The notes: generated from the letters alone by a model not told the origin. A stretch of 64,000 nt of DNA from an uncultured Actinomycetes bacterium (GCA_963742735.1 CAVUMN010000002.1:73255-137254), one strand, 5' to 3'. Positions 6,577-59,260 are shown, counted from the first letter of the stretch. Translations and numbers: made by a program.

Positions 6577-7547
6577 CGGGCGCGCCGATCCGGCTGCTGT
6601 GGGGGGAGGACTCGTTCCTCGTCCGGGAGGCGGCGATCGAGGCCCTCGACGGCATCCAGCCCCGCGAGGTCGACGGCGCCGACTGGTCCGGCGGCGAGAC
6701 GGCCGACCTGGCCACGCCCTCGCTGTTCGGCGAGCCGCGCGCCCTGCTGATCACGAACTGCCAGGACCTGACCGACGAGGGTCTCCGCGAGCTGCGGACG
6801 TACGTGCTCTCGCCCTCGCCCGACGCGACCCTGGTCGTCACCGGCCGGGGGATCAAGGCCGCGCCGCCGATCGCCAAGGACTTCGAGAAGGCCGGGTTCA
6901 AGCCCGAACGCATCGAGCTGGCCCGCAAGGAGCTCTCCGGCTGGCTGGTCAAGCGGGCCCGGGCCCGGGACATCCAGCTCCGCGCGCCGGCGGCGAACAC
7001 CCTGGTCGAGCTGATCGGGGAGAGCCCGGCCGAGCTCGACCGCGCCGTGGACCAGATGGCGGCGGCGTTCCCCGGCCGGCCCATCGAGCCCGCGCTGGTC
7101 GAGCGCCAGTTCCGGGGGCTCGGCGACCACAAGACCTGGGAGGTGTGCGACAAGGCGTTCGGCGGCGACCTGTCGGGCGCGATCCGGGCGCTGCAGGCGA
7201 TGCTCGCCGGTCGGGAGGAGCCGCTGGTGATCCTCGGCGGCATCGCCGCCCGGGTCCGCGACCTCCAGCGCGTCGCCGCGGTCCCCGCCGACGTGCAGCC
7301 GAAGGACGCCGCGCGGATGGCGGGCCTCCGGTTCGAGTGGCAGTTCAAGCGCTACCGCGACACCGCCCGCCGCCAGCCGCCCGGGGCGCTCGCGTCGCTG
7401 CACCTGGCCGTGGCCAACGCCGACCGCGCGTTGAAGAACGGCGCCGGCGGCGACGTGGTCCTGCCGATGCTCCTCGCCCGCATCGCCGGCGAGGTCCCCG
7501 CCGACGCCCCCATCGAGGTCGGCTCGGTCGCCCGCGCCCTTCGCTGA
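6573..7547 (+). CDS. holA: DNA polymerase III subunit delta
   Basis: In-frame GTG at 6573 overlaps the comEC stop. The N-terminus IRLLWGEDSFLVREAAIEAL and the conserved position after comEC are typical of holA. Confidence 0.8.
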   Translation: MTGAPIRLLWGEDSFLVREAAIEALDGIQPREVDGADWSGGETADLATPSLFGEPRALLITNCQDLTDEGLRELRTYVLSPSPDATLVVTGRGIKAAPPIAKDFEKAGFKPERIELARKELSGWLVKRARARDIQLRAPAANTLVELIGESPAELDRAVDQMAAAFPGRPIEPALVERQFRGLGDHKTWEVCDKAFGGDLSGAIRALQAMLAGREEPLVILGGIAARVRDLQRVAAVPADVQPKDAARMAGLRFEWQFKRYRDTARRQPPGALASLHLAVANADRALKNGAGGDVVLPMLLARIAGEVPADAPIEVGSVARALR

Positions 7548-7634
7548 GCCCGCCCGAGCCGGGTGTGAGGCGCGCCACGGTGTGGTCGGAATCCGGCGTC
7601 TAGAATCGCGCTCCCGAAAGGACGAGTACGCCCC

Positions 7635-8519
7635 ATGGCCCCAGCCCCGCCCGTCAGGATCGTCACGGACACCACCGGCTACCTGCCGCAGGAGCTGGTT
7701 ACCGAGCATGGGATCGAGCTCGTCTCTCTCTACTACTCCTTCGACGGCGCCGAGTGGCTGAAGGAGGACGACGTCGTGGACGGCGACTGGGGGCCGTTCT
7801 ACGAACGGCTCACCTCGTCCCCGGGTCTGCCCACCACGCGGCCGCCCGAGGTCGAGGACTTCCGCGCGGTCTACGAGCCGATCCTGGCGACCGGCGCCGG
7901 CATCGTCTCGCTCCACATCTCCTCGGGCCTCTCCGAGACCTGCGCGCACGCCCGCAAGGCCGGCGAGCAGCTCGCCGACGAGGGGCTGGGCGCGGAGCGC
8001 ATCCTGGTCGTGGACGCCGCGTGCACGGGCGGCCAGCAGGGCTTGCTGGCGCTGGCGGCCGCGCGGGCGGCGGAGGGGGGCGCCGACGCCGAGGCGGTGG
8101 CCGACCACGTCCGGCGGGCCCGTCTGGAGGCCCGGAGCTGGTTCACGCTGGACACCCTGGAGTTCCTCAAGCGCGGCGGACGGATCGGCGGCGGCGCGGC
8201 GTGGCTCGGCTCGACCCTGAGGATCAAGCCCATCCTGACCATCCAGTCCGAGGTCCACGCGGTTGAGCGCGTCCGAACCCGCGAGCGCGCCGTCGAGCGC
8301 CTCATCGAGTTCGGCCGCGAGCTGCACGCCGGCGGCGCCGACGGGTACTGCGTACAGCACGCTCGCTGCGAGCCGGAGGCCCGCCACGTCGTCGACCGGC
8401 TTTCGGAGGTCTACGAGCGCCCGCCCGTGTTCGTGGGGGAGATGGGCCCGGTCCTGGGGACCCATGGCGGGCCGGGGTTCCTGGGCGTCGCCGGGTTACC
8501 ATCCGGCTTCCTCGAGTAG
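7635..8519 (+). CDS. DegV family (FakB-like fatty-acid-binding) protein, paralog 1
   Basis: 294-aa ORF: VRIVTDTTGYLP...SLHISSGLSETC...LDTLEFLKRGGRIG...GTHGGPG. TAGAAT hexamer at 7601-7606. Confidence 0.9.
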   Translation: MAPAPPVRIVTDTTGYLPQELVTEHGIELVSLYYSFDGAEWLKEDDVVDGDWGPFYERLTSSPGLPTTRPPEVEDFRAVYEPILATGAGIVSLHISSGLSETCAHARKAGEQLADEGLGAERILVVDAACTGGQQGLLALAAARAAEGGADAEAVADHVRRARLEARSWFTLDTLEFLKRGGRIGGGAAWLGSTLRIKPILTIQSEVHAVERVRTRERAVERLIEFGRELHAGGADGYCVQHARCEPEARHVVDRLSEVYERPPVFVGEMGPVLGTHGGPGFLGVAGLPSGFLE

Positions 8520-8538
8520 CCATGGAGAGCCCCAAGCC

Positions 8539-9417
8539 ATGACGACGCCGGTCACGGTGGTCACCGACACCACGGCCTACCTGCCGCGCGAGACGGTGGA
8601 CAAGCACGGCCTGCGCGTGATCTCCCTCTACTACTCGTTCGGCAACGACGAGTGGATCAAGGAGAGCGACCACGACGGCGGCGACTGGGGATCGTTCTAC
8701 GAGCGCCTGTCGAGCTCCGACACCCTCCCCACCACCCAGCCCCCCACGGTCGAGGACTTCCGTGCGGTCTACGAGCCCCTCCTGGCGGAGGGCGGAAGCG
8801 TGGTCTCGATCCACCTGTCGTCGGTGCTGTCGGAGACGTGCGCCAACGCCCGCAAGGCGGTGGAGGAGCTCACCGAGGCCAGCCGGGGCGGGGACCGAGT
8901 CCGGGTGATCGACTCGGCGAGCACCGCGGTCCAGGAAGGGCTGTTGGCCCTGGCCGCGGCGCATGCCGCCGGGGAGGGCAAGGACGCGGACTCGGTCACG
9001 GAGGTGATCCGGTCCGCGCGGGCCGAGGCCAAGAACTGGTTCGTGCTCGACACCCTGGAGTACCTGAAGCGCGGCGGCCGGATCGGCGGCGCGACGGCGT
9101 GGATGGGGTCGGCGCTGCAGGTGAAGCCGGTCTTGACCCTCGAGTCGGGGATCCGCGCGGTGGAGCGCGTTCGGACGGCCGACAAGGCGTTCGTGCGCCT
9201 GGTCGAGTACGGCCACCAGCTCCACGGCGCCGGGGCCGACGCGTGGGCCGTGCAGCACTCCCGGCGGGAGGACGACGCCCGCAAGCTGATCGACCGCCTC
9301 TCCCACGTGTTCGGCCGCGCGCCCGAGTTCGTCTCCGAGGTAGGCCCGGTCATCGGGACGCACGCCGGTCCGGGCGCGTTCGGCCTCGGTGGCATCCCCT
9401 CCAGGTTCCTCGGCTAG
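8539..9417 (+). CDS. DegV family protein, paralog 2
   Basis: ATG at 8539 (GGAGAG 9 nt upstream), in frame with ORF 8263..9417. MTTPVTVVTDTTAYLP...LDTLEYLKRGGRIG...GTHAGPG. Confidence 0.9.
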   Translation: MTTPVTVVTDTTAYLPRETVDKHGLRVISLYYSFGNDEWIKESDHDGGDWGSFYERLSSSDTLPTTQPPTVEDFRAVYEPLLAEGGSVVSIHLSSVLSETCANARKAVEELTEASRGGDRVRVIDSASTAVQEGLLALAAAHAAGEGKDADSVTEVIRSARAEAKNWFVLDTLEYLKRGGRIGGATAWMGSALQVKPVLTLESGIRAVERVRTADKAFVRLVEYGHQLHGAGADAWAVQHSRREDDARKLIDRLSHVFGRAPEFVSEVGPVIGTHAGPGAFGLGGIPSRFLG

Positions 9418-9565
9418 CTCTCCAGAAAGAGACCAGGGTCACAGTGTGCTCAAGGTCGGTCACTCTTCCCGTTCCGTACGGGCAGGACTAGAATGTGCTT
9501 GGTTCGAAGTAACTAGTCACCCGACACAGGAGCGCCCCGATGATCGAGCCACGCGAGGTCCCATC

Positions 9566-10444
9566 GTGACCTCGCCCGTCACGGTCGTCACCGACAGCAC
9601 GGCCTACCTCCCGCGCGAGCTCATCGCCAAGCACGGGATCGAGCTCATCTCCCTGTACTACAGCTTCGACGGCGTCGAGTGGCTGAAGGAGGGCGACGTC
9701 GAGGGCGAGGACTGGGGCCCGTTCTACGATCGCCTGGTCGCGTCCGAGACGATGCCGACCACCCGGCCCCCGCACGTCGAGGACTTCCGCGCGCTGTACG
9801 AGCCGATCCTGGCCGAGGGGCGAAGCATCGTCTCGATCCATCTGTCCTCCGGGCTGTCCGAGACGTGCGACCACGCGCGCAAGGCCGTGGAGGAGCTCAC
9901 CGAGGAGGGCCTCGGCGGGGAGCGGGTGCACGTGGTCGACTCGGCGAGCGCGTGCCTGCAGCAGGCTCTGCTCGTGCTGGTTGCCGCCCACGCCGCGGCC
10001 GAGGGAGGCGACCCCGACACGGTCTTCGACCAGGTCCGCCGGGCCCGGGTCGAGGCGCGCAACTGGTTCGCCCTCGACACGCTCGAGTTCCTGAAGCGCG
10101 GCGGCCGGGTCGGCGGCGCCGCGGCCTGGCTGGGCTCGACGCTGAAGATCAAGCCCATCCTGACCGTGGAGTCGGAGATCAAGGCCGTCGAACGGGTGCG
10201 AACCTCCGACCGCGCGTTCGAGCGCCTGATCGAGTGCGGGCGCCAGCTCCACGGCGCGGGCGCGGACGCCTACGTCGTCCAGCACGCCCGCGCGGGGAAG
10301 GAGGCGCAGGTCCTGAGCGAGCGGCTGCACGAGGTCTTCGGCAGGCCGCCGGTGATGATGTCTGAGGTCGGGCCGGTCATCGGCACGCACACGGGGCCGG
10401 GACTGCTCGGCGTGGGCGGACTCCCGTCCAGATTCCTGGAGTAG
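9566..10444 (+). CDS. DegV family protein, paralog 3
   Basis: GTG at 9566 (GAGG upstream), in frame with ORF 9389..10444. VTSPVTVVTDSTAYLP...LDTLEFLKRGGRVG...GTHTGPG. Confidence 0.9.
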   Translation: MTSPVTVVTDSTAYLPRELIAKHGIELISLYYSFDGVEWLKEGDVEGEDWGPFYDRLVASETMPTTRPPHVEDFRALYEPILAEGRSIVSIHLSSGLSETCDHARKAVEELTEEGLGGERVHVVDSASACLQQALLVLVAAHAAAEGGDPDTVFDQVRRARVEARNWFALDTLEFLKRGGRVGGAAAWLGSTLKIKPILTVESEIKAVERVRTSDRAFERLIECGRQLHGAGADAYVVQHARAGKEAQVLSERLHEVFGRPPVMMSEVGPVIGTHTGPGLLGVGGLPSRFLE

Positions 10445-10448
10445 GGCG

Positions 10449-13400
10449 ATGAACGAGCTGAGCGCCTCCTCGAGCTCGTCGGTCCCCTGCCCGCGGTGCG
10501 GCCGCGGGAACCGGGACACGGCCAAGTTCTGCAAGGGATGCGGCCTGTCCTTCGCGCCGGAGATCACCTGCGTGAGCTGCGGCAGCAAGCTCGAGGCCGA
10601 CGCCGTCTTCTGCGACGAGTGCGGCACCGCGGTCACGGCCTCCCAGCCGGCGGTGAAGGCCCCGGTCCGCGAGTCGGCTCGACTGCCGGAGACCTTTGGG
10701 GGCGGCCGCTACAAGGTCGTCCGGTTCCTGGGCGAGGGGGGACGCAAGCGGGTCTACCTGGCCGAGGACACCCGGCTGACCCGTGAGGTCGCCGTCAGCG
10801 TCTTCAAGGCCGAGGGGGTGGACGAGACGGCGCTGATTCGCGCCCGGCGCGAGGCCGAGGCGATGGGCAAGCTCGGCGACCATCCCAACATCGTCACGAT
10901 CTACGACTTCGGCGAGGAGGACGGCGGCTTGTTCCTCGTCAGTCAGTACATGTCGGGAGGCGACCTCTCGGGCATGCTCTCCCAGGCCCCGGACCGCCGG
11001 CTGGCGATCGCCGAGGTGGCGCGGATCTCCACGGAGATCGCCCGCGGCCTGGAGCACGCGCACGCGAACGGCGTGATCCACCGCGACCTCAAGCCCCAGA
11101 ACGTGTGGCTGTCCCCGGACGGGACCGCCAAGCTCGGCGACTTCGGCCTGGCCCTCGCCGCCGACCGCTCCCGCCTGACCGTGGACGGGGCGATGGTCGG
11201 GACGGTCGCGTACATGCCGCCCGAGCAGGGTCTGGGCCGGCCGGCCGACGAGCGGTCGGACCTCTACTCCCTGGGCGCGGTGATGTACGAGCTGATCTGT
11301 GGGGTCCCGCCGTTCACCGGCGGGGACGCCGCGGCGATCATCTCCCAGCACGTCAGCACCGTTCCCGTCGGCCCCAGCTGGCACCGCTCCGACCTGCCCA
11401 CCGCGCTCGAGCGGCTGGTGCTGAAGCTCCTGGCGAAGACCCCTGATGAGCGGTTCCAGTCGGCCACCGAGACCCGCGAGGCACTCCAGGCCATCGAGTC
11501 GGCGTCGGGGGTCGCGCCGGCGCCCGCCGAAGGCACGGTCGCCCTCGAGCGTCTGACCGACGGCATCTTCCTTGGCCGGGAGTCCGAGATGAAGGAGCTT
11601 CGGGCGGCGCTCGACGAGTCGATCGCCGGTCGAGGGCACGTAACCCTCATTGCCGGCGACGCCGGGATCGGCAAGACGCGGCTGGCGACGGAGGTCAAGG
11701 CGTACGCCGAGCTCCGGGGCGCCCGGGTGCTCTCCGGCCGCTGTCACGCCGGCGAGGGCGCGCCGCCGTACTGGCCCTGGGTCCAGGTGATCCGCACGTA
11801 CGTCCGCGAGCGCAAGGCCGAGGAGCTCCTGGCCGAGCTCGGCTCCGGCGCCACCGACATCGCCCAGGTCGTCTCCGACGTCCGGGCCTGCCTGCCCGAC
11901 CTCCCCGAGCCGCAGGTCCTGGACCCCGACCAGGCCCGGTTCCGGCTGTTCGACGCCGTCACCACGTTCCTGCGCAACGCCTCGAGCACCGGCCCGCTGG
12001 CGATCTTCATCGAGGACCTGCACCGCGCGGACGAGCCCTCGCGCGAGCTGCTGGACTTCGTATCCCGGGAGCTCGGCGGCGCGCGGATCTTCCTGCTCGG
12101 CACCTATCGCGACACCGAGCTCGGCGAGGACCACGCGCTGAACGAGCTCCACGCCTCACTGTCCCGCGAGCGCAATTACTCGCGCCTGCGCCTCCGGGGC
12201 CTGAACGAGCGCGAGGTCAAGGCGCTCCTGGAGGACGTGTCCCGCCAGACCCTGGAGACCACCCAGGAGCTCGCGCTGGTCGACGCGGTCTTCCGCGAGT
12301 CCGACGGCAACCCGTTCTTCATCGAAGAGATCCTGCGGACGCTGCTCGAGTCGGAGGTCATCTACCTGCGCGAGGGCAAGTGGGTGAGCGACGCGACCCA
12401 CATGAGCGACCTGTCGATCCCGAAGTCCATCCGCGAGCTCGTGGAACAGCGCCTGGCCCGGCTGCCCGAGGAGAGCCGGGAGCTCCTGTCGATCGCGTCG
12501 GTCATCGGCTACGAGTTCGACATGCAGACCCTGGAGACGGTGGCCGGCATCCCCGTGGCCTCGGTGTTCGACCGGGTGCGGGCGGCCGTGGACGCCGCCA
12601 TCGTCTCGCCGGTCCCCGACGAGCCCAACCGGTACCGGTTCGCGTACGGCGCCACGCGCGACGCGCTCTACGAGGAGCTTCCCGAGTCCCGCCGCTTCGA
12701 GCTGCACCGGGCCATCGGCGAGGCCCTCGAGGAGATGTACGACGACCGCATCGAGTCCCACTTGGCCGAGCTGGCCCACCACTTCGCGCTCGCCGCCCCG
12801 CTCGGCCTGGCCGGCAAGGCCGCCGACTACTCGTGGTGGGCCGGCGAGCGAGCCGCCACGCTGGCCGCCCACGAGGAAGCGGTCCTGCACTTCACCCGGA
12901 CCATCCAGCTGTTCGACACCTTGACCGAGGAGGAGCCCACCCGGCGGTGCGAGCTGCTCATCGTCCTCGGCGAGTCGCGGTGGCGGGCCGGGGACGTGCG
13001 GGGGGCGAAGGAGACGTTCCTCAAGGCTGCCGAGGCCGCCGAGAAGCACGCGCTGCGCGACCAGTACGCGCGGGCGGCGCTCGGCTTCGCCGGCGGGCCC
13101 GGCGGGTTCTCCGCCGCCGACAAGCCGGACGACCAGCTGGTCGAGCTGCTGCGCACGGCGCTCCGCGGCCTGTCCGAGCGCGACAGCCTGCTGCGCGTGC
13201 GGCTGCTGGCGCGCCTGTCCCTCGAGATGCGCCTGACCACCGACGCCGTGGAGCCGGACAAGCTCTCCCGCGAGGCGCTGGAGATGGCCGAGCGGCTGGG
13301 CGACGCGCGGATCACGCTGCTGGCGATGTACAGCCGCCAGTGGGCGACGATGGGGCCCGACGGGCTCGAGGACGATCTGACCGCCGGCGAGGAGATCGTC

Positions 13401-38360: not shown

Positions 38361-38385
38361 TACATCACCATCATCGAGTGATGTA
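38361..38385 (+). promoter_or_regulatory. perfect inverted repeat, probable VapB (RHH) operator
   Basis: TACATCAC-catcatcga-GTGATGTA (8-bp arms, 9-bp spacer), overlapping the first candidate start codons of the antitoxin gene. Confidence 0.5.
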
Positions 38386-38614
38386 TCCTCCACCCATGGC
38401 CATGAAGCGGCTGCAGATCTCGATCGAGCCCGAGCTCGACGACGCGCTCGCGGTCGAGTCCGTACGGACCGGGCGGTCGAAGGCCGACCTGATCCGGTCC
38501 TACGTGCGCGAGAAGCTCTCGCGGAAACGGGGCGGACGCGACCCGATCGACGACCTGGTCGGCGCGTTCGACTACGAACCGGCGGATATCGACACCGTCG
38601 TGTACGAAGAGTGA
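38378..38614 (+). CDS. vapB: ribbon-helix-helix (CopG/VapB-type) antitoxin
   Basis: MKRLQISIEPELDDALAVESVRTGRSKADLIRSYVREKL is a typical RHH N-terminus. The real start is probably ATG 38396 or 38402. Confidence 0.7.
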   Translation: MMYPPPMAMKRLQISIEPELDDALAVESVRTGRSKADLIRSYVREKLSRKRGGRDPIDDLVGAFDYEPADIDTVVYEE

Positions 38615-39012
38615 GGTTCGTCGATTCCTCCTTCTGGATCGGGCTAAGCAGTCCGAGGGACCACCGGCACGTCGACGCAGTCGCCATCTGGCGCTCGGGC
38701 CCAGGCCCGCTCGTAACGTCGAACCACGTCCTGGGAGAGTCGTGGACGTTCCTGCGCAGGCGCGCCGGTCATCGCGCGGCAGGTCTGCTGCTTGACCGAG
38801 TGTCGAGCTCGCCACAGGTCGAGGTTCAATTCGTCGATGAGGGAACCGAGGACGTCGCCTGGCGGTGGCTTCGCCGCCATGACGAGCGTCCGTACTCCTT
38901 CGTGGACGCGACGAGCTTTGCGGTCATGCGTCGCCTACGGATACGAGAAGCGCTGGCGTTCGACGGCGACTTCTCCGCGGCCGGGTTCATCGAGGTCCGG
39001 CCGGTGGGCTGA
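38611..39012 (+). CDS. vapC: PIN-domain ribonuclease toxin VapC
   Basis: GTG at 38611 overlaps the antitoxin stop (GTGA). Acidic PIN residues are in VRFVDSSFWI, SFVDATSFAVM and AFDGDF. Confidence 0.8.
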   Translation: MRFVDSSFWIGLSSPRDHRHVDAVAIWRSGPGPLVTSNHVLGESWTFLRRRAGHRAAGLLLDRVSSSPQVEVQFVDEGTEDVAWRWLRRHDERPYSFVDATSFAVMRRLRIREALAFDGDFSAAGFIEVRPVG

Positions 39013-41518: not shown

Positions 41519-42255
41519 GCTATCGCTCCGACCTCGACCTGTCGAAGATCCCCCGGCATGTCGCCATCGTCATGGACGGCAACGGGCGGTGGGCCAAGCA
41601 GCGCGGCCTTCCCCGGACCGAGGGCCACGGCGCGGGCGAGCAGGCCCTGTGGGACACGGTCATGGGCGCGCTCGACGTCGGCGTGAAGTGGCTGACCGTG
41701 TACGCCTTCTCCACGGAGAACTGGCGCCGCCCGAAGGCCGAGGTGCAGTACCTGATGAACTTCAACCGGGGGCTGCTCCAGCGCCGGCGCGACGAGCTGA
41801 ACGAGCTGGGCACGCGGGTCCGCTTCGCCGGCCGGCGCGACTGGAAGGTCCCGCGCTCGGTCCTGCGGGAGATGGACCGCTCGCAGGAGCTGACCAAGGA
41901 CAACCGGCGGATGACCCTCACCATCGCGTTCAACTACGGCGGGCGGACCGAGGTCATCGACGCGGTGAAGCAGATCCTGGAGGAGGCGAAGCGGGGCAAG
42001 CTCCGCGGCGAGCGGCTCACCCCGGACTCGATCACCAAGCGGCTGTACCACCCGGACATGCCCGACCCCGACCTGCTGATCCGCACCGGCGGCGAGATGC
42101 GCATCTCGAACTTCCTGCTGTGGGAGGCCGCCTACGCCGAGCTCTGGTTCACGCCGGTGTTCTGGCCGGACTTCAACCGCGAGAACCTGTTCGAGGCCAT
42201 CCGCGACTACCAGAAGCGCGACCGCCGCTTCGGCAAGATCGAAGACGCCGAGTAG
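41515..42255 (+). CDS. uppS: isoprenyl transferase / undecaprenyl-diphosphate synthase
   Basis: ATG at 41515 overlaps the recO stop. HVAIVMDGNGRWA...LTVYAFSTENWRRP...RTGGEMRISNFLLWEAAYAE. Confidence 0.93.
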   Translation: MSYRSDLDLSKIPRHVAIVMDGNGRWAKQRGLPRTEGHGAGEQALWDTVMGALDVGVKWLTVYAFSTENWRRPKAEVQYLMNFNRGLLQRRRDELNELGTRVRFAGRRDWKVPRSVLREMDRSQELTKDNRRMTLTIAFNYGGRTEVIDAVKQILEEAKRGKLRGERLTPDSITKRLYHPDMPDPDLLIRTGGEMRISNFLLWEAAYAELWFTPVFWPDFNRENLFEAIRDYQKRDRRFGKIEDAE

Positions 42256-42286
42256 CAACGCCTCCGCCGGACTCACGATCGCCCTC

Positions 42287-42616
42287 GTGGTTGTTCTCGT
42301 CCTGATCGGGGCGTTCTGCTTCTCCGTGGCCACATTGATCTCGCTTTCCACCTCGAGGCCGGTGCAGATCCGCGCCGCACACGAGTACGGGGGATGCGGA
42401 GTCCTTCCGGCGCACTCAGATGAACGCGAGAGGTGCGCGGCGGACTACGCCCGGACGAACCCTGCGCCGTTTCCTTTGAGGTGGATGCTCCTGGCCGGCC
42501 TTTGCGGTATCGCGGCGACCGCGCTCCTCTGGTCAGCGTCTCGCCGGGCAGAATCACGTGGAGCTCGTGATTCCGGATCCGCCGTTCGCCCTCGTGTCTC
42601 GCGCGTCCGCCGGTGA
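42287..42616 (+). CDS. hypothetical small membrane protein
   Basis: 109-aa ORF: TM (VVLVLIGAFCFSVATLISL), a Cys-containing loop, TM (WMLLAGLCGIAATALLW), and a basic tail. Its A/T-ending codons are atypical for this window. Confidence 0.4.
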   Translation: MVVLVLIGAFCFSVATLISLSTSRPVQIRAAHEYGGCGVLPAHSDERERCAADYARTNPAPFPLRWMLLAGLCGIAATALLWSASRRAESRGARDSGSAVRPRVSRVRR

Positions 42617-42984
42617 GGTCTCAGGAGACGCCCCGTTCGACTGCAGTCGCGTTCGTGGTGATCCTGATCCTCCTGCTCGGCTCGCTCTTTACGAGTCTCA
42701 CCCTGCTCCCGGGCACCGTTCTGCTTGAGAGCGACCTTGGGGCGCCGCGGTGGAGTGATTGTTGGCAGGTCGTCGGTGACGCGCGAATGGAGTGTCTCGG
42801 TCCGGCATTCTGGCGAGAGAAGCTGGCGGACACATCGCCCTCGTTCGCCATCACGCTCATCGCGTCCGTGGGAGCGCTCGTGCTGTCCGCTCGGTTTCGC
42901 CTTACGGGCGGGATCGCAGTCTCCGTCGGGGTGTTCGGTGCTGCCGTCTTGGTAAGCGTCGCCGGGGCACTGCGCGTGTCCTGA
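42613..42984 (+). CDS. hypothetical small membrane protein (same architecture as upstream gene)
   Basis: GTG at 42613 overlaps the upstream stop (GTGA). TM (AVAFVVILILLLGSLFTSLTLL), a loop with 2 Cys, then two C-terminal TM segments. Confidence 0.45.
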   Translation: MRSQETPRSTAVAFVVILILLLGSLFTSLTLLPGTVLLESDLGAPRWSDCWQVVGDARMECLGPAFWREKLADTSPSFAITLIASVGALVLSARFRLTGGIAVSVGVFGAAVLVSVAGALRVS

Positions 42985-43034
42985 CCACACGGACCTGGCC
43001 GATCGACTCTCGTGGGCGCCGGTAGGCTTCGCGG

Positions 43035-43628
43035 ATGACTCCATCGATTCAGATCCCGGACACGTCGATCGCCGTCGCGTCGCGTGAGCTGGCGCGGGAG
43101 GTGTCGAGCCCCGCGCTGTACCACCACTGCGAGCGGACGTACGCGTTCGGGTCGGTGCTCGGCGAGCGGGAGGGCTTCGAGTTCGACCCGGAGCTGCTGT
43201 ACGTCGCCAGCATCCTGCACGACCTCGGGCTGACCGAGCGCTTCGACGGGCCGGACGAGTTCGAGGTCCAGGGGGCGAACGCGGCGCACGCGTTCCTGAC
43301 CGAGCAGGGATGGGATCCGGCGAAGGCCGACCTGGTCCGCGAGGCGATCACGTTCCACACCCGCCCCGCGAACGAGGACCACGAGCGCAAGGAGGTCCCC
43401 CTGCTCACGATCGGGGCCGGGGTCGACGTCCTGGGCCTGGGGATCGAGGACGTGCCGTCCGAGTGGCTGCATCGCATCGTGGAGGAGTGGCCGCGGGAAG
43501 GGCTCAAGGCCGAGCTGGTCGAGCGGTTCGGCGACCAGGCCCGCCGCAAGCCGGGGTCGTGGATCGGCATGCTCGTCGAGAACCTCGAGTGGCTCGAGCG
43601 GATCCAGGCGGCCCCGTTCGACGAGTGA
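43035..43628 (+). CDS. HD-domain metal-dependent phosphohydrolase
   Basis: 197-aa ORF: YHHCERTYAFGSVLG...LLYVASILHDLGLTERF (the H...HD signature). Confidence 0.8.
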   Translation: MTPSIQIPDTSIAVASRELAREVSSPALYHHCERTYAFGSVLGEREGFEFDPELLYVASILHDLGLTERFDGPDEFEVQGANAAHAFLTEQGWDPAKADLVREAITFHTRPANEDHERKEVPLLTIGAGVDVLGLGIEDVPSEWLHRIVEEWPREGLKAELVERFGDQARRKPGSWIGMLVENLEWLERIQAAPFDE

Positions 43629-44560
43629 GCCGGGGTAGCATCCCGCCCGTGAGCGCCCCTGCCGCCGCCGACACCGACGCCGTCACGCTCGACGAGGCCG
43701 ACCTGCCTGAGGTCTTCCGCTCGGGCAACCGGGTCTCGATGAGCGGGCAGAACCGGTACATCCGGTCCACCGCCGCCCAGCTCATCCTGCTGGTCGTCGC
43801 GGCCGTCGCCGGGGCGATCCAGGTCGCGGGCGACGCCCCCGACGCCGCGGTGATCGTGGCCGCGGCCGCCTTCCTTGGAGCCGCGCTGCTGAAGGTCCAG
43901 GTCATCGCCACGCACCCCGAGCAGGACTGGTACGAGGGGCGGGCCGTCGCCGAGTCCACGAAGACCCTCGCCTGGCGCTACGCCGTGGGGGGCGAGCCGT
44001 TCCCCGTCCGCAAGGGCCCCGAGCGGAAGATGAAGGAGCTGTTCCTGGCGCGGCTGCGCGACATCGGGCAGTCCATCGACCTCCCGCTCGTCTCCGGCAC
44101 GCAGCGCGTCGAACAGATCACCGACGGCATGGAGCGCCTGCGATCCCAGCCCCTCGCCGCGCGCCGGGCGGCCTACGAGCAGGGGCGCCTGCGGGACCAG
44201 CTCGCGTGGTACTCGAGCAAGGCCGTGTGGAACCAGACGCGGGCCCGGCTGTGGAACGGCGGGATGCTCGGGCTGATGGTTGCGGGCGGGGTGATCGCGC
44301 TGGTGAGCCTGAGCTCGGGTATCAACCTGAGCCTGGTGGACGCGATCGCCACCCCGGTGGGGGGCATCGGCGCGTGGATCGCGACGAAGCAGCACCAGAC
44401 CCTGGCCAGCGCTTACTCGGTGACCGCCCGGGAGCTCGCCGACATCCTGGACCTGGCCGAGATGCCGAAGAGCGAGGCCGAGTGGGCGGCCTTCGTCTCC
44501 CACGCGGAGGAGGCCGTCTCCAGGGAACACACGCTGTGGCGGGCCTCACGGGGCAAGTGA
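43625..44560 (+). CDS. DUF4231 / SLATT-family membrane protein (two 2-TM units)
   Basis: GTG at 43625 overlaps the HD gene stop (GTGA); GTG 43649 is the alternative. First TM pair AAQLILLVVAAVAGAIQVAG / AAVIVAAAAFLGAALLKVQVI. WYEGRAVAESTKTLAWRYAVGG. Second TM pair after AWYSSKAVWNQTRARLW. C-terminal AVSREHTLWRASR. Confidence 0.7.
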   Translation: MSRGSIPPVSAPAAADTDAVTLDEADLPEVFRSGNRVSMSGQNRYIRSTAAQLILLVVAAVAGAIQVAGDAPDAAVIVAAAAFLGAALLKVQVIATHPEQDWYEGRAVAESTKTLAWRYAVGGEPFPVRKGPERKMKELFLARLRDIGQSIDLPLVSGTQRVEQITDGMERLRSQPLAARRAAYEQGRLRDQLAWYSSKAVWNQTRARLWNGGMLGLMVAGGVIALVSLSSGINLSLVDAIATPVGGIGAWIATKQHQTLASAYSVTARELADILDLAEMPKSEAEWAAFVSHAEEAVSREHTLWRASRGK

Positions 44561-44615
44561 AGATTCCCCCCTTCCTCAACGCGCGGCCGGGGATGTACCC
44601 TGCGCCGAGTGCCCC

Positions 44616-46181
44616 ATGAGTGAGACCCCCGAGGACCGCGAGCACGCCGACCTCCCGCCCGTGCGGGTGCTGATCAGCTACCGCCGGGACGACACCGCGG
44701 GTCACGCCGGACGCCTGTACGACTCGCTCAGCGAGCGCTTCGGCCGGGAGCAGATCTTCATCGACATCGCGGCCATCGAGCCGGGTGTGGACTTCAGCGA
44801 GACGATCGCCCGCGAGGTCGGCTCCTGCGACGTCCTGCTCGCCGTCATCGGCCGCCAGTGGCTGACCGTCACCGACGCCAAGGGCCGGCGCCGGCTGGAC
44901 AACCCCGACGACTACCACCGGCTGGAGATCCAGGCCGCCCTGGAGCGCAACATCCGGGTCATCCCGTGCCTGGTCCAGAACGCGCAGATGCCGGCCCTCG
45001 ACGACCTCCCCGAGGCGATTCAGCGGCTCGCGCTGCGCAACGCGCTGGAGCTCTCCGACGAGCGGTGGAGCTACGACGTCGGACGCCTCGACGCGGCCAT
45101 CTCGAGCGTCGCCCGCGCGAAGGCCCTGCGCCCGAAGGAGGAAGACGAGGCGCCGAAGGAGCCCGAGCCCGAGGAGCCCGAAGCGCCGCCGACCATCGAG
45201 GAGCTTCAGGCAAACGCGGTACCGGAGGAGATCCCCCCGGTCGAGGAACCGGCAGGCGAGGCCGAGCCACTCCCGACCCCCGCGGTCCCGATGGAGCCGG
45301 ACGCGTTCGTCCACGTCGAACCGCCCGACCTGCCGGGGACGCCACCGCCACCACCCACCCCGATGCCCGAACCAACGCCCGAGCCCGAACCCGAACCAAC
45401 GGAGCCCGCCCCCGAGCCCGAGCCCGAGCCCGAGCCGGCACCGGCGGCGTTCGTTCCGCCGCCGCCGGTCGAGCCCGCGGCGATGGTGACCGCGCCGATC
45501 ACGCCCGCGCCGCCCACGGAGTCCTTCCCCCCGGTCGCCCCACCCCCGCCCCCGCCCGGGCCCTCCGAGCCGAAGCGATCCAGGCGAGGGTTGTTGATCG
45601 GGATCGTCATCGCGGCCGTCATCCTCGGGGGCGGCGCCACGGCCTTCGTCCTCACCCGAGACGACACCCCGGAGCGCACCATCCCAACCGTCGACCCGAC
45701 CTCCCCGACCCCGACCATCACCGTCACCACCACGACGACCCCGGCGCCCGCCGACCCGCACGCCGAGCTCATCGCCCGCGTCCCGGCGTCGTTCAGCGCC
45801 ACCTGCGCGGACGACGACGCGAACTACCTTCCGGACCTGGCCCTGGGCGGGATCCGGTGCACCGCTTCCGGGATCGAGGTCTGGTACTACCTGTTCTCGA
45901 CCGGCGCGGACGTGGACGACTGGTACTCGCGGCGGATCGCGGACACCGGGATCACCCAGGGCATGGGCGGCGACTGCGCGTCCGACGACACCGCCGAGGA
46001 CCAGCTGCAGGTGGGCGGCGTCGACGTCGAGGGCCGGCTGTTCTGCCTGACGAACGACCGCGGCCGGTGGATCGAGTGGAAGCGCACCGACTATCGGATC
46101 TACGCGTACGTGCTTCGCGCCGACGGGAACCGCTCCTCGCTGTACGAGTTCTGGACCGGCGCGGGACCGAACGCCCTCTAG
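44616..46181 (+). CDS. TIR-domain protein: N-terminal TIR, Pro/Glu-rich linker, single TM helix, C-terminal 4-Cys extracytoplasmic domain
   Basis: 521-aa ORF. TIR_2-like VRVLISYRRDDTAGHAGRLYDSL...IFIDIAAIEPGVDFSETI...CDVLLAVIGRQW...DYHRLEIQAALERNIRVIPCLV. TM GLLIGIVIAAVILGGGATAFVL at about 45588-45656. Confidence 0.85.
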   Translation: MSETPEDREHADLPPVRVLISYRRDDTAGHAGRLYDSLSERFGREQIFIDIAAIEPGVDFSETIAREVGSCDVLLAVIGRQWLTVTDAKGRRRLDNPDDYHRLEIQAALERNIRVIPCLVQNAQMPALDDLPEAIQRLALRNALELSDERWSYDVGRLDAAISSVARAKALRPKEEDEAPKEPEPEEPEAPPTIEELQANAVPEEIPPVEEPAGEAEPLPTPAVPMEPDAFVHVEPPDLPGTPPPPPTPMPEPTPEPEPEPTEPAPEPEPEPEPAPAAFVPPPPVEPAAMVTAPITPAPPTESFPPVAPPPPPPGPSEPKRSRRGLLIGIVIAAVILGGGATAFVLTRDDTPERTIPTVDPTSPTPTITVTTTTTPAPADPHAELIARVPASFSATCADDDANYLPDLALGGIRCTASGIEVWYYLFSTGADVDDWYSRRIADTGITQGMGGDCASDDTAEDQLQVGGVDVEGRLFCLTNDRGRWIEWKRTDYRIYAYVLRADGNRSSLYEFWTGAGPNAL

Positions 46182-47857: not shown

Positions 47858-49465
47858 TCAGCTGCTGGCGGTCTGGACGTCGTTCACCAGGCGAAGCGTG
47901 TGCATCAGGACCGCGTCGCCGAAGCACGCGTCGAGCCCGTAGGCGTCCTCGTACTCCGACAGGACGAGCTCGTCCTGTCCCACTCCGTCCGTCACCTCAC
48001 TGGGGACGCTGCCGACGAACCCGACGCCCTGGCGCCCGACGTGGTCGGTCTCGAAGGACTGCATGATGTAGCCGAGGCCGTCGTTCACCTGGGCCAGCGG
48101 GAAGGCGATGAACGGCGTCTCCTCCTCGATGGTGTTCGACAGGTTGGAGAACGTCTCGCCGGGGGCGCCGGTGAAGATCAGGTTCCCGACTCGGGCTGCG
48201 GACACCGCGGTGCTCACCCCGAGCGGAGACGCCGAGCGGCACCAGCGGAGCTCGCTCTTGCCGGCCCCCACGAGGCCGAGCGGGGTGAACGGCCGATCGA
48301 AGAACCCGACCGCGCCCAGCGTGCCGAGCGGGATGTTCGTGATGGGCTGGGTCCAGAACGTCTGCCTGACCACCACGTCGGTGCCGGTCACGGCCTGGCC
48401 GCCGCCGGGCTGCGGGATCAGGTTGGCCAGCCCGTTGCCGACCCCCTGAGTTCCGCCCGAGTTGCTCATGTTGCCCAGGCCGGTCTGGAAGAAGAGGCCG
48501 ACCCCGCCGAACCGATCCTCCACGCGCTTCTCGAAGACGGCGGGGAAGTCGGCGTGCGCGGTGCCGCCGTTGTTCCCCACCGACGTCGGGTGGGCGGCGT
48601 AGGCGCCGAGGGTCCCGATGGTCGCCCCGGTGGCGCTGTTGGTGAACCGCGCCCACGAGAACGTGTTCTCCTCCGCGGACCAGTACAGGTCGCGGCGCTC
48701 GCCGTTGAACTGCCGGGCGAGCACGTCGCCGGCCTCCACCGAGGCGGGGACGCGGTTGGCGATGGCGTTGCCCACGGAGGTGCGGATCGCGTCCGCCACC
48801 TGCTCCATGTACCAGCTGGGCACGCCGCCCCATCCGCCGATGAAGTCCGGGGCGGCGTGGCTGTGCGTCGAGGCGAGCATGAACCCGGCCGGGTTGAAGC
48901 CGTGTTCCGCCCCGAGCTCCTCGGCCAGGTCGAAGGCGCCGCAGCCGTCGCAGAGCTTGCCGTACTTGCCGAAGTAGGAGGTGCCGTCCAGGATCGACAG
49001 GACGAACGAGTCCCGGCCGTCGGAGATGAACAGCGTGCGGACCCACAGGCCGTACTGCTGGTCCCAGGCCGTGATGGGGTTCATCGGGCCGATGCCGAAC
49101 CCGCCCTGGTACAGGCAGCTCGGGTTCTCCGGCCAGGTCAGCCGGAGGTCGCCCAGGTGGCCGAACGCCTCGGGGGCGTCGTCACCCATGGTGGCGCAGC
49201 CCTCCTTCGCCCAGGTCCCGCCGTAGGCGGCGGGCTTCGGCTCGATCGACACCTTCGCGGCGCCGACGACGAACTGGCCGGGGACGAGCGCCGCGGCCGC
49301 GGACTCCGAGCCGGCCTCGCCGGCCAGGAGGGGGGCCTCGATCCCGAGATTGTCGGCCGTCCCGGAGACCGGGGCCAGCCCGACTCCTGCCCACGCCACC
49401 GAGACGGTGAGCACGCCGGTGAGGAGCGAGACGAACAGGGTTCGTACGGGACGTCGAGCGGGCAT
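47858..49465 (-). CDS. neutral/alkaline ceramidase-like hydrolase, secreted or membrane-anchored (paralog 1)
   Basis: ATG at 49465 with GGAGGA upstream. Anchor RTLFVSLLTGVLTVSVAWAG. VGAAKVSIEP...LWVRTLFISDGRDSFVLSILD...LASTHSHAAPD resembles the ceramidase N-terminal domain. Confidence 0.65.
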   Translation of the reverse strand: MPARRPVRTLFVSLLTGVLTVSVAWAGVGLAPVSGTADNLGIEAPLLAGEAGSESAAAALVPGQFVVGAAKVSIEPKPAAYGGTWAKEGCATMGDDAPEAFGHLGDLRLTWPENPSCLYQGGFGIGPMNPITAWDQQYGLWVRTLFISDGRDSFVLSILDGTSYFGKYGKLCDGCGAFDLAEELGAEHGFNPAGFMLASTHSHAAPDFIGGWGGVPSWYMEQVADAIRTSVGNAIANRVPASVEAGDVLARQFNGERRDLYWSAEENTFSWARFTNSATGATIGTLGAYAAHPTSVGNNGGTAHADFPAVFEKRVEDRFGGVGLFFQTGLGNMSNSGGTQGVGNGLANLIPQPGGGQAVTGTDVVVRQTFWTQPITNIPLGTLGAVGFFDRPFTPLGLVGAGKSELRWCRSASPLGVSTAVSAARVGNLIFTGAPGETFSNLSNTIEEETPFIAFPLAQVNDGLGYIMQSFETDHVGRQGVGFVGSVPSEVTDGVGQDELVLSEYEDAYGLDACFGDAVLMHTLRLVNDVQTASS

Positions 49466-49568
49466 TCGATTTCCTCCGGGAGTGGGAGCGCTGCGGGCGA
49501 GTACTGCCAGACTCATTCCAGGGAGGGGCCTCGATTCCTGCCCGGCGCGCCGAAGCCGCCGGCTCGAG

Positions 49569-51113
49569 CTAGAGGGACCCCATGAGGGTCAAGGTCTTCT
49601 CCAGGACCGCGTCGCCGAAGCACGCGTCCAGGCTGAACGCGTCCTCGTACTCCGCGACGGGGTCCCCGGCGAAGCCGGTGCCCTGGCGCCCGAGGTGGTC
49701 GGTCTCGAAGGACTGAATGATGTAGCCGAGCCCGTCGTTGACCTGGGCCAGCGGGAACGCGACGAAGGGCGCCTTCTCCTCGATGGTGTTGGTCAGGTTC
49801 GAGAACGTCTCGCCGGGGGCGCCGGTGAACCACAGGTCCCCGACTTTCGCCCCCGAGACGGAGGTGTTCACCCCGAGGGGTGAGACGGAGCGACACCGGC
49901 GCACGTCGTTCTCGCCCTCGTCGACCAGCGAGCCCGCCGAGAACGAGCGGTCGAAGAACCCGGCCGTGCCGAGGGTCCCCAGCGGGATGTTCGTGATCGG
50001 CTGGTCCCAGAACACCTGCCCGACCTTCACGTCGGTCCCGGTCACCCGCTCGCCCTGCCCCTTGCCGGGGACCAGGGCGGCCAGGCCGTTGCCCATCTCC
50101 TCGGTGCTCCCGCGCGGGCTCATGTTGCCGAGCCCGGTCTGGAAGAACATGCCGATGCCGCCGAAGCGCTGCTCGACCTTCCGGTCGAACACCCCGGGGA
50201 AGTCGGCGTTGGCGACGCCCATGCTCTCGTCCGCGGTGACCGGGTGTGCCGCGAACGCGCCCAGCGTCGCGATGGTCTTGCTCGTGCCGGCGCGGTAGAA
50301 GCGGACCCAGGACATCGTGGGGTCCTCGGACGACCGGTAGAAGTCGCGGCGCTCGCCGCTGAAGTCGCGGGCGAGCACCTCGCCCGCCTCGACGCTCGCG
50401 GGCTTCCGCTGGGCGTACGCCCCGCCGACTGCGCCGCGGATCGCGTCGGCCACCTGCTCCATGTACCAGCCGGGGACGCCGCCCCACCCGCCGATGAAGT
50501 CGGGCGCCGTGTGACTGTGGGTCGAGGCGAGCATGAACCCGGCCGGATCGAAGTGGTACTTCGCGCCGAGCTCCTGGGCCAGGTCGATGGCGCCGCAGCC
50601 GTCGCACAGGTTGTTGAAGTGACCGAAGTACGAGGTCCCGTCGAGGATCGCCAGGACCAGCGCGTCCTTGCCGTCGGAGATGTAGAGCGCCCGAACCCAC
50701 AAGCCGTACTTCGTGTCCCACGAGGTGATGGGGTTCATCGGCCCGATCCCGTAGCCGCCGCTGTACAGGCAGCCCGGGTCCTCGGGCCAGGGCAGCCGGA
50801 TGTCGCCCAGGTGACCGAACGTCGCGGCGCCCGCGTCCTCCTCCAGCGTCGCGCAGCCCTCCTTCTGCCAGGTCGCGCCGTACTTGGCGGGCTTCGGCTC
50901 GATGGAGACCTTCGCGGCGCCGACCGTGAACTGGCGCCCGCGGGGGAGCGCCGCGGACGTCTCGCCCCCGCCCTTCGAAGGCGCGGCCGCGTCGAGCACC
51001 GGGTCGAGGAGGCCCTTCACGGGGGCCAGGCCGATCCCGGCCCAGGCGGCGCCCACGGTCAGCGCACCCGTGAGGGCCGCGACGATCAGGGTGCGAACGG
51101 TGCGTCCAGTCAT
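49569..51113 (-). CDS. neutral/alkaline ceramidase-like hydrolase (paralog 2)
   Basis: ATG at 51113 with GGAGGA upstream. It shows the same motifs (VGAAKVSIEP, LWVRALYISDGKDALVLAILD, LASTHSHTAPD). Confidence 0.65.
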   Translation of the reverse strand: MTGRTVRTLIVAALTGALTVGAAWAGIGLAPVKGLLDPVLDAAAPSKGGGETSAALPRGRQFTVGAAKVSIEPKPAKYGATWQKEGCATLEEDAGAATFGHLGDIRLPWPEDPGCLYSGGYGIGPMNPITSWDTKYGLWVRALYISDGKDALVLAILDGTSYFGHFNNLCDGCGAIDLAQELGAKYHFDPAGFMLASTHSHTAPDFIGGWGGVPGWYMEQVADAIRGAVGGAYAQRKPASVEAGEVLARDFSGERRDFYRSSEDPTMSWVRFYRAGTSKTIATLGAFAAHPVTADESMGVANADFPGVFDRKVEQRFGGIGMFFQTGLGNMSPRGSTEEMGNGLAALVPGKGQGERVTGTDVKVGQVFWDQPITNIPLGTLGTAGFFDRSFSAGSLVDEGENDVRRCRSVSPLGVNTSVSGAKVGDLWFTGAPGETFSNLTNTIEEKAPFVAFPLAQVNDGLGYIIQSFETDHLGRQGTGFAGDPVAEYEDAFSLDACFGDAVLEKTLTLMGSL

Positions 51114-51210
51114 CGAGTCCTCCACGCGTCGCCGTTGGCAGGAGGCAGGGCGCCGCACCGCCATACCTGACAGATTTCCCCGGATTCGCTCGGATTCCTG
51201 CTCGGCGGAG

Positions 51211-54857: not shown

Positions 54858-54887
54858 TTGACGCCATGCCGCCGGAAGGCGTATCGT
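54858..54887 (+). promoter_or_regulatory. candidate promoter of the metal ABC transporter operon
   Basis: TTGACG (54858-54863), an 18-bp spacer, then TATCGT (54882-54887). The ATG at 54896 is 8 nt downstream, which suggests a leaderless mRNA. Confidence 0.45.
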
Positions 54888-57931: not shown

Positions 57932-59260
57932 ATGGCCGACACCATGGAGGCCATCACCGCCCTCGCCAAACGGCGGGGGCTCATCTTTCCATCGAGCGAG
58001 ATCTACGGCGGGCTGCGCTCGTCGTGGGACTACGGCCCCCTCGGGGTCGAGCTCAAGCGCAACGTCAAGAACGCGTGGTGGCGGGCGATGGTCCAGGACC
58101 GTGCCGACATCGTCGGCCTCGACGCCGCGATCATCATGAAGCCCGACGTGTGGGTGGCCAGCGGCCACGTCGACTCGTTCTCCGATCCGCTCGTCGAGTG
58201 CGGCACCTGTCACAAGCGGTGGCGCCAGGATCACCTCACCCCCAACGAGGCGGGCGAGCTCGTCTGCCCCGACGACGGCGGCAAGCTGTCCGACCCCCGC
58301 CACTTCAACCTGATGTTCAAGACGTTCCTGGGCCCGGTCGACGACGAGGCGCACATCGCCTACCTGCGCCCAGAGACCGCGCAGGGGATCTTCGTCGACT
58401 TCGTCACCGTCCAGGCCGCGAGCCGCAAGAAGGTCCCGTTCGGGATCGCCCAGATCGGCAAGAGCTTCCGCAACGAGATCACCCCGGGGAACTTCGTCTA
58501 CCGCACCCGCGAGTTCGAGCAGATGGAGATGGAGTTCTTCGTCGAGCCCGGCACCGACGAGACCTGGCACGAGTACTGGATCGAGCAGCGCATGGCCTGG
58601 TACACGAACCTCGGCATCGACCCGACCCACCTCCGCGTCCGCGAGCACGAGCAGGACGAGCTCAGTCACTACTCCAAGCGAACCGTCGACATCGAGTACG
58701 CGTTCCCGTTCACCGACTGGGGCGAGCTCGAGGGGATCGCCAACCGCACGGACTTCGACCTGAAGGCTCACGAGAAGGCCTCCGGCGAGGACCTCACCTA
58801 CTACGACCAGGAGAACGACCGTCGGTACCACCCCTACGTCATCGAGCCGGCGGCCGGCGCCGACCGCGCCACCCTCGCGTTCATGCTGGATGCCTACACG
58901 GTCGAGGACACCACCACCGCGAGCGGCAAGACCGAGAAGCGAACGGTCATGCGGTTGCACAGGGACCTCGCGCCGATGAAGGTCGCGGTGCTTCCGCTCA
59001 GCCGACACGAGGACCTCGTCCCCGAGGCCAAGCAGGTGTTCGACCTGGTGAAGCGGCACTGGATGGCCGACTACGACGACTCAGGCTCGATCGGGCGCCG
59101 GTATCGCCGGCAGGACGAGGTGGGGACGCCCTACGCGGTGACCATCGACTTCGACACGGCAACCGACCGCGCGGTCACCGTTCGCGACCGCGACACCATG
59201 GCCCAGGACCGGGTCGCGGTCGACCAGCTGACCGGCTACCTGAAGGAGCGGTTGGACTGA
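57932..59260 (+). CDS. glyQS: glycine--tRNA ligase (alpha2 type)
   Basis: 442-aa ORF: [55 protein letters not shown]. Confidence 0.95.

Follow-up and report, generated by a model that had tools for sequence, protein, structure and literature searches.

A probable type VII Thoeris-like module with a receptor-type TIR protein in an uncultured actinomycete

Three adjacent genes in the genome of an uncultured Actinomycetes bacterium, coding for an HD-domain protein, a SLATT membrane protein and a TIR-domain protein, raise the question of which of them work together and to what end. They occupy positions 43035-46181 of a 64,000-nt stretch of DNA (GCA_963742735.1, CAVUMN010000002.1:73255-137254), which we refer to as the window and along which all positions are counted unless another locus is named. 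The window DNA is actinobacterial, with a GC content of about 70%. Reading of the open reading frames (ORFs) shows that the three genes lie on one strand and fill this interval, and their Pfam domains bear out the assignment as HD, SLATT and TIR genes made in an initial annotation of the sequence. The same annotation treated all three as parts of one TIR-based conflict or signalling module. Our analysis leads to a smaller unit. The SLATT and TIR genes probably form a two-gene type VII Thoeris-like module, in which the TIR protein would act as the signal generator and the SLATT protein as a ThsH-type effector, and we put the probability of this reading at roughly 0.65. It is directly supported by the domain identities, the catalytic Glu, the full-length homology to ThsH, the adjacency of the two genes across genomic contexts and the predicted membrane topology.

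The SLATT protein and its pairing with TIR genes

The middle protein had been recognised as following the DUF4231/SLATT pattern, and profile scores far above the cut-offs confirm this. In Pfam, it matches SLATT_3, SLATT_1 and DUF4231 with E-values of 6e-42, 1e-31 and 5e-17 and scores of 143.9, 109.7 and 62.8 bits, all above the curated cut-offs of 26.3, 26.3 and 24.7. The NCBIfam models of SLATT_3 and SLATT_1 give 160.5 and 105.7 bits (cut-offs 45 and 41). Four transmembrane (TM) helices are predicted, arranged as two hairpins, together with cytoplasmic helical domains. The hairpins had been described as flanking two motifs; the two hairpins stand, while the term is only loosely right, the first hydrophobic hairpin (~residues 45-96) preceding WYEGRAV and the second (~209-250) following AWYSSKAV. 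Within the SLATT_3 motif, residues W102, R106, E110, S111, K113, T114, W117, R118 and Y119 are invariant among 29 homologues. The AlphaFold 2 model of the protein is all helical, with a predicted local distance difference test (pLDDT) value of 87.8, and a Foldseek search with this model returned no meaningful match.

Operons that combine a TIR with a SLATT gene were named type VII Thoeris, with ThsH as the effector, by Yirmiya et al. (bioRxiv 10.64898/2025.12.03.692087, December 2025). Three type VII systems, from Pseudohongiella nitratireducens, an Alteromonadales scaffold and Bacillus licheniformis, defend against phages. According to the same preprint, the TIRs of the tested systems make canonical cyclic ADP-ribose (cADPR) on infection only, added cADPR, but not 2'cADPR or 3'cADPR, halts the growth of cells carrying the system, and type VII is found in Actinomycetota. 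The earlier statement that no pair of a DUF4231-type SLATT and a TIR protein had been tested is thus out of date, as defence, cADPR production and a response to cADPR have been demonstrated for three such systems.

The preprint gives sequences of the TIRs and not of the effectors, and the reference ThsH was taken from a GTDB locus, L081, found with the Pseudohongiella TIR domain. This locus belongs to strain SCS-49 (the tested strain is SCS-111) and carries a 100% identical match to the validated TIR domain. The gene overlapping the end of its TIR gene encodes a 294-aa SLATT_3+SLATT_1+DUF4231 protein. Over 293 residues, the full length, the window SLATT protein is 33% identical to this ThsH (BLASTP, E 2e-36). 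When the same ThsH was compared by hhalign with a profile of the 29 homologues of the window SLATT protein, the probability reached 100% with an E-value of 1e-45. Furthermore, both proteins have the family-invariant motifs in common, namely WY.GRA.AES.KT..WR, an R/Q/Y block before the second hairpin, and SREHT.W. These alignments place the window SLATT protein in the ThsH family.

Members of this family are frequently accompanied by TIR genes. An alignment-based scan of GTDB, with one genome per species, yielded at least 570 ThsH-family genes, and 80 loci were kept; a search of the GTDB genomes with the window SLATT as a single sequence found nothing. TIR_2 or ThsB_TIR are the commonest Pfam families among same-strand neighbours on both sides of the ThsH-family genes. 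When six-frame ORFs were searched directly by phmmer with ten diverse TIR seeds, at least 29 of the 80 loci had a TIR no further than 3.5 kb away. After a single profile iteration the number was 51, and in 37 loci the TIR lay within 400 nt; these iterated counts may contain some false positives. The closest GTDB homologue of the SLATT protein (51% identity) is followed, 14 nt downstream, by a gene for a 1058-aa TIR_2 protein. None of the 80 loci has recO or uppS nearby, and the SLATT-TIR pairing therefore survives a change of genomic context.

In the lineage of the window, the site of the module is constant and follows recO-uppS. The gene order in L127, the closest syntenic relative, is recO, uppS, cyclophilin, HD, SLATT, TIR, TIR and GCS2, and in L128 and L129 it is recO, uppS, SLATT, TIR and TIR. 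The SLATT-TIR adjacency is kept in L127 to L130, with TIRs of the same architecture. After the SLATT gene, the syntenic relatives have one or two TIR genes, and several thsB genes per system are typical of Thoeris. At L126, the order is recO, uppS and TIR only; here a TIR-TM-four-cysteine gene (L126 8001-9224) is kept at the recO-uppS site in the absence of both SLATT and HD. The features of the window locus are collected in Table 1.

Table 1. Coordinates of the genes, domains and sites at the SLATT-TIR locus, counted along the window.
Feature	Position	Strand	Basis and remarks
HD-domain gene, 197 aa; neighbour, not a conserved component	43035..43628	+	Pfam HD, E 1e-8
Putative ThsH-like SLATT effector gene	43625..44560	+	311 aa from GTG 43625, alternative start GTG 43649; Pfam/NCBIfam
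SLATT_3 domain, residues 28-181	43706..44167	+	First TM hairpin plus WYEGRAVAESTKTLAWRY motif; Pfam
SLATT_1 domain, residues 184-305	44174..44539	+	Second TM hairpin plus C-terminal SREHTLW motif; Pfam
Receptor-like TIR protein, 521 aa, candidate ThsB equivalent	44616..46181	+	Pfam; orthologues after the SLATT gene in L127-L130
Cytoplasmic TIR_2 domain, residues 18-142 (fold to ~165)	44667..45041	+	Pfam TIR_2, E 3e-11
E104 codon, predicted catalytic Glu	44925..44927	+	Invariant in 40 relatives
Pro/Glu-rich low-complexity linker, ~residues 166-322	45111..45581	+	Sequence; GC skew to -0.25
Single TM helix, ~residues 325-346	45588..45653	+	Kyte-Doolittle peak 2.42
Predicted extracytoplasmic four-cysteine alpha/beta domain, residues 375-521, no Pfam family	45738..46178	+	HMMER family, AlphaFold 2

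A receptor-like TIR protein with a four-cysteine outer domain

The third protein had been annotated as opening with a TIR_2-like domain that keeps the catalytic Glu, and both points hold. TIR_2 (PF13676) scores 44.3 bits, above the curated cut-off of 28. A PDB search with the TIR domain as a single sequence gave noise only, and the profile of its subfamily, comprising 40 relatives, finds the TIR domain of SARM1 as its best PDB match (E 1.8e-8). In the profile alignment, the invariant E104 pairs with the Glu in the SARM1 segment DWVHKEIVTAL, which by a residue count made in this analysis would be the catalytic E642.

The relationship to SARM1 raises the possibility that the TIR protein is itself the effector. 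As an NADase tethered to the membrane it would kill by depleting NAD+, with the SLATT protein acting independently or upstream. SARM1, the best solved relative, is an NAD+-depleting executioner, and the persistence of the TIR gene without SLATT in L126 fits such a role. We consider this very unlikely, since ThsH-family proteins respond to the TIR product in the validated systems and strict conservation of the cytoplasmic SLATT motifs links the window protein to the Pseudohongiella ThsH.

The C-terminal two-thirds of the TIR protein had been overlooked and are its genuinely unusual part. A single TM helix follows the linker, and a counterpart of this helix is present in all orthologues. The residues KRSRR lie on its N-terminal side, and therefore the TIR domain is predicted to be inside and the C-terminus outside. 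Beyond the helix, a Ser/Thr/Pro-rich stretch leads into a 135-residue domain with four conserved Cys, three of them invariant and the fourth nearly so (at least 90%). As a whole, the protein is predicted to have the layout of a receptor, with an outer sensor-type domain, one helix and a cytoplasmic TIR domain. The linker that joins TIR domain and helix is Pro/Glu/Thr-rich with PEPEPEP runs and shows a GC skew to -0.25 together with a positive AT skew. At ~160 residues, it is about twice as long as in the orthologues.

The outer domain belongs to a family for which Pfam has no model. A word-indexed protein search with this domain returned no match, and an exhaustive HMMER search recovered the family, with 287 representative clusters carrying the domain at E<=1e-3. 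Its partners were surveyed in 75 sampled members and include Pkinase (26), PD40 repeats (11), TIR_2 (6) and PASTA (4), with BTAD or FHA in others. Mostly, the domain is found C-terminal on Hanks-type Ser/Thr kinases, at times in tandem copies. Its AlphaFold 2 model is a confident alpha/beta structure (pLDDT 94.3). A Foldseek search of the PDB with this model gave nothing at E<=1e-3; TM-scores did not exceed 0.45, the value for TM1622, TiME, Apa and PsbP-type alpha/beta proteins. A PknH-like sensor fold, considered as a candidate, is absent from these PDB matches.

Comparison of the window with L127 identifies the outer domain as the fastest-evolving part of the module. Identity amounts to 79% for the TIR domain, 76% for HD and 73% for SLATT, and drops to 47% for the outer domain. 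Across the orthologues in L126, L127 and L128, the outer domain is 42-47% identical, versus 64-79% for the TIR domains.

Receptor-type TIRs of this kind are not restricted to the window lineage. The commonest layout among the TIRs adjacent to ThsH-like genes (37 loci) is a TIR domain followed by a TM helix and a large C-terminal region, seen in 17; another 14 are short and ThsB-like, and 8 are long soluble proteins. At the C-terminus, these TIRs vary and include GDPD in Propionibacteriaceae-like metagenome-assembled genomes (MAGs), WD40 in the closest GTDB homologue and the four-cysteine domain in the window lineage. Even within one locus, the second TIR of L128 carries a different C-terminal domain. 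Membrane-anchored or receptor-like TIRs are not mentioned in the main text of the type VII Thoeris preprint (10.64898/2025.12.03.692087). The SLATT-TIR pair as such is already known, and its receptor-type TIR partner is a variant undescribed in the literature examined.

Six loci from Propionibacteriaceae-like MAGs (L028, L033, L040, L042, L053 and L071, ~7000-10900 in each), have a ThsH-like gene followed by a gene for a TIR_2-TM-GDPD protein and then a convergent gene for a second SLATT_1 protein of ~345 aa. These loci could be a two-effector version of the module. At L139 (4001-7803), a gene for a TIR_2-TM-repeat protein, whose TIR domain is 56% identical to that of the window, overlaps the start of an LSDAT(SLOG)-DUF4231-SLATT_1 fusion. 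Its domain content makes L139 a further case of a receptor-type TIR next to a SLATT-type effector.

The HD gene and the genomic setting

The initial annotation gave the HD gene the part of a signal-degrading or immunity phosphohydrolase. HD, SLATT and TIR would then form a three-gene system, with HD degrading the TIR-made nucleotide for immunity or signal reset. The layout of the genes is in keeping with this idea. All three share a strand with tight spacing, the gap from the SLATT stop to the TIR start measures 55 nt as annotated, and the annotated GTGA overlap at 43625-43628 is present in the sequence, where the HD stop TGA (43626-43628) overlaps a GTG (43625-43627). Moreover, the HD-SLATT-TIR order is kept in L127. 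The SLATT gene could equally well start at a second in-frame GTG, at 43649, which would leave a gap of 20 nt after HD, and in L127 the SLATT start lies 25 nt past the HD stop. Because the SLATT start is ambiguous in the window and removed from the HD stop in L127, no translational coupling between HD and SLATT can be taken as established. A scan for promoters and terminators gave no informative signal. As all genes from recO onward are co-directional, the shared strand of HD says little.

The comparison with other genomes decides against a three-gene system. By tblastn, HD lies beside SLATT-TIR in 1 of 139 other loci, L127, which belongs to a close relative. No HD gene is found in L128, L129 and L130, where SLATT-TIR is present, in L126, or in any of the 80 ThsH-family loci of GTDB, so that the trio is not co-conserved in relatives. 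Scans of one genome collection and two metagenome collections found no close relative of HD beside such modules, and one distant match at most, with neither SLATT nor TIR nearby. In L127, HD abuts the cyclophilin gene with a 1-nt gap and is separated from the SLATT gene by 25 nt. In addition, the family of the HD protein is cyanamide-hydratase-like and not that of a nucleotide phosphodiesterase. Its best family match in NCBIfam is the cyanamide-hydratase model TIGR03401 (46.6 bits, below the cut-off of 109.85), and its nearest solved relative is the yeast cyanamide hydratase Ddi2/3 (E 1.9e-5). The three-gene system is most improbable on these grounds. The HD gene is an unrelated neighbour outside the SLATT-TIR system, and its removal from the system saves experimental effort.

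The wider setting of the module is that of a housekeeping region. Upstream of the block lies uppS, with its end at 42255, and downstream are the ZnuA zinc-uptake gene at 54866 and then glyS at 57932. The locus had been placed between uppS and the zur operon; what is confirmed is the position between uppS and ZnuA/glyS. Flanking genes comprise the housekeeping genes recO, uppS and GCS2 as well as genes for unknown secreted proteins. The GC content at third codon positions (GC3) of the HD, SLATT and TIR genes is 0.93-0.96, like that of recO and uppS. Recent horizontal acquisition of the trio was rejected on account of these values, which equal those of the neighbours.

The lower-GC islet that had been noted beside the trio is real (~42250-43000) and corresponds to two small membrane ORFs with GC3 values of 0.72 and 0.77. 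These ORFs overlap each other at 42287-42984 (+), encode 109 and 123 aa and have no Pfam match, and the GC3 of every neighbour is 0.93-0.98. At their place, L127 has the cyclophilin gene. They are either newly acquired or else not real genes.

The only defence-type neighbour is a toxin-antitoxin pair 4 kb upstream of the module. At 38378-39012 (+), a ribbon-helix-helix (RHH) antitoxin-like ORF of 78 aa overlaps with the PIN-domain ORF of 133 aa that comes next, giving the pair a VapBC-type look. It is flanked by an aldehyde-dehydrogenase-like gene and an M36 metalloprotease gene. Apart from this RHH-PIN pair, no other defence genes adjoin the module. On the downstream side, two tandem paralogues on the minus strand (47858-49516 and 49569-51164; 552 and 531 aa) have signal-peptide-like N-termini and belong to no Pfam family. 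Both match one single L127 gene with 62-65% identity and therefore represent a lineage-specific duplication in the window.

Relation to known systems and proposed mechanism

The module shares with type VII Thoeris an adjacent TIR with a catalytic Glu and a SLATT_3+SLATT_1/DUF4231 membrane protein that aligns end to end with the L081 ThsH. It differs from the validated systems in its TIR protein. Their ThsB is short, soluble and of the ThsB_TIR type (144 aa in Pseudohongiella), whereas the window TIR is a SARM1-like TIR_2 domain within a protein of 521 aa that crosses the membrane once and bears an outer domain. We call the window module a variant, as a short soluble ThsB is a trait of the tested examples and not a stated definition. 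The discovery criterion of the preprint (10.64898/2025.12.03.692087), a TIR-cluster defence score above 0.4, applies to clusters and not to single loci.

Several observations weigh against assigning the module to this type of defence system. All validated examples have a short soluble ThsB, unlike the TIR protein of the module, and the experiments cover systems from Proteobacteria and Bacillus, that is, another subtype than the one considered here. Unlike the validated systems, the window locus is not a defence island, with its housekeeping flanks and fully native codon usage. PADLOC, whose database is older than type VII, returned no match for the SLATT protein, a weak ThsB match only and nothing else in the trio. 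The module keeps one fixed site in relatives whose SLATT proteins are 48-73% identical, a pattern that may suit a resident physiological function equally with defence. L126 keeps its TIR gene without SLATT, and a receptor-like TIR can therefore persist alone; other relatives of the window TIR_2 subfamily are also found without SLATT. The link between this subfamily and SLATT is frequent and not obligatory.

These points bear on a different reading, in which the pair is a pathway of cell-envelope surveillance or of regulated death or dormancy and not of phage defence. Here, the outer domain would read a wall or extracellular cue, as its counterparts on Hanks-type kinases presumably do, the TIR domain would give an NAD-derived signal or deplete NAD+, and the SLATT protein would alter membrane permeability. 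Receptor Ser/Thr kinases are the main carriers of the ectodomain family, which is further present in PASTA, BTAD and FHA proteins; this distribution agrees with such a role, as do the stable syntenic place beside recO-uppS, the native codon usage and the scarcity of defence genes nearby. The L126 locus likewise favours a resident physiological role. Every ThsH+TIR pair tested so far, however, is a phage defence system. Moreover, paralogous TIR genes with different outer domains at one locus, as in L128, suggest a diversification typical of conflict systems, and the faster divergence of the outer domain than of the TIR domain between orthologues (47% versus 79% identity) points to conflict as well. 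We regard a purely envelope-related function as unlikely and retain the type VII Thoeris-like module as the preferred reading.

The nature of the signal, its trigger, the formation of a pore and the defence against phages are inferred. In the proposed mechanism, the TIR protein would be set in the membrane, with the TIR domain in the cytoplasm and the four-cysteine domain outside. An event sensed by or passed through the outer domain and the helix might bring TIR domains together, by analogy with receptor clustering. Activation would probably depend on the outer domain or the membrane context. The SARM1-like TIR domain, with E104, would then cleave NAD+ and cyclise ADP-ribose, and the product, going by the validated type VII systems, would most likely be canonical cADPR. 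This nucleotide may bind the conserved cytoplasmic part of the SLATT_3+SLATT_1 protein, which would oligomerise and breach the membrane, so that the infected or damaged cell would cease to grow. The mechanism put forward in the initial annotation had also included a TIR-made, NAD-derived signal read by a SLATT membrane effector; this part agrees with what has been published for type VII Thoeris, and the role given to the HD phosphohydrolase falls away.

Individual elements of this scheme have counterparts in other systems. The window TIR domain resembles that of SARM1 in its subfamily profile match and aligned catalytic Glu, but the window protein has no ARM/SAM auto-inhibitory region. The SLATT effectors of CBASS and Pycsar are likewise predicted to be nucleotide-gated and membrane-disrupting, with two TM hairpins; their partner is a CD-NTase or cyclase instead of a TIR, and the tandem SLATT_3+SLATT_1 arrangement is the architecture of ThsH. 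Type II Thoeris, which pairs a TIR with a Macro-TM ThsA, and other Thoeris systems with membrane effectors also use a TIR-made ADP-ribose (ADPR) derivative to activate a membrane-spanning effector. Unlike the type II effector, the window SLATT protein has no Macro domain, and its expected signal is cADPR, compared with His-ADPR in type II. In the receptor Hanks-type Ser/Thr kinases of Actinomycetota, a C-terminal four-cysteine outer domain follows a single TM helix just as in the window protein, but the cytoplasmic output there is a kinase and here a TIR domain.

Animal Toll-like receptors (TLRs) show the same combination of an outer sensor domain, one TM helix and a cytoplasmic TIR domain. 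In the window protein, the domain order is reversed, with the TIR domain N-terminal and a type II membrane topology, and on the outside a small four-cysteine alpha/beta domain takes the place of the leucine-rich repeats of TLRs. The resemblance is architectural, and common descent of the whole protein is unsupported here. A 2026 preprint reports that TIR domains of animal TLR4 make cADPR and activate ThsH. Tentatively, the module may be an example of bacterial TLR-like signalling, a possibility we hold at clearly less than even odds. An outer sensor of the type common to receptor kinases would respond to an event at the cell envelope, be it adsorption or injection by a phage, damage to the wall or a cue of non-viral origin, and would activate, across the membrane, the cytoplasmic SARM1-like TIR domain, whose cADPR would open a ThsH pore.

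The Thoeris TIRs known so far are soluble proteins, presumed to recognise infection from within the cell. When a TIR spans the membrane, carries an outer domain and is paired with a cADPR-responsive effector family, this points to the same pathway with a different trigger, namely an event at the cell surface. If this is true, a whole actinobacterial branch of Thoeris would sense outside the cytoplasm, and not phage proteins inside it, by means of outer domains that vary between four-cysteine, GDPD and beta-propeller types. An uncharacterised four-cysteine domain, common on actinobacterial receptor kinases, would gain a partner and a likely role. With a layout that matches animal TLRs, the subtype could serve as a simple bacterial model of how ligand binding outside turns on TIR catalysis inside, and bacteria may hold a simple pathway that leads from an ectodomain through a TM helix and a TIR domain to cADPR.

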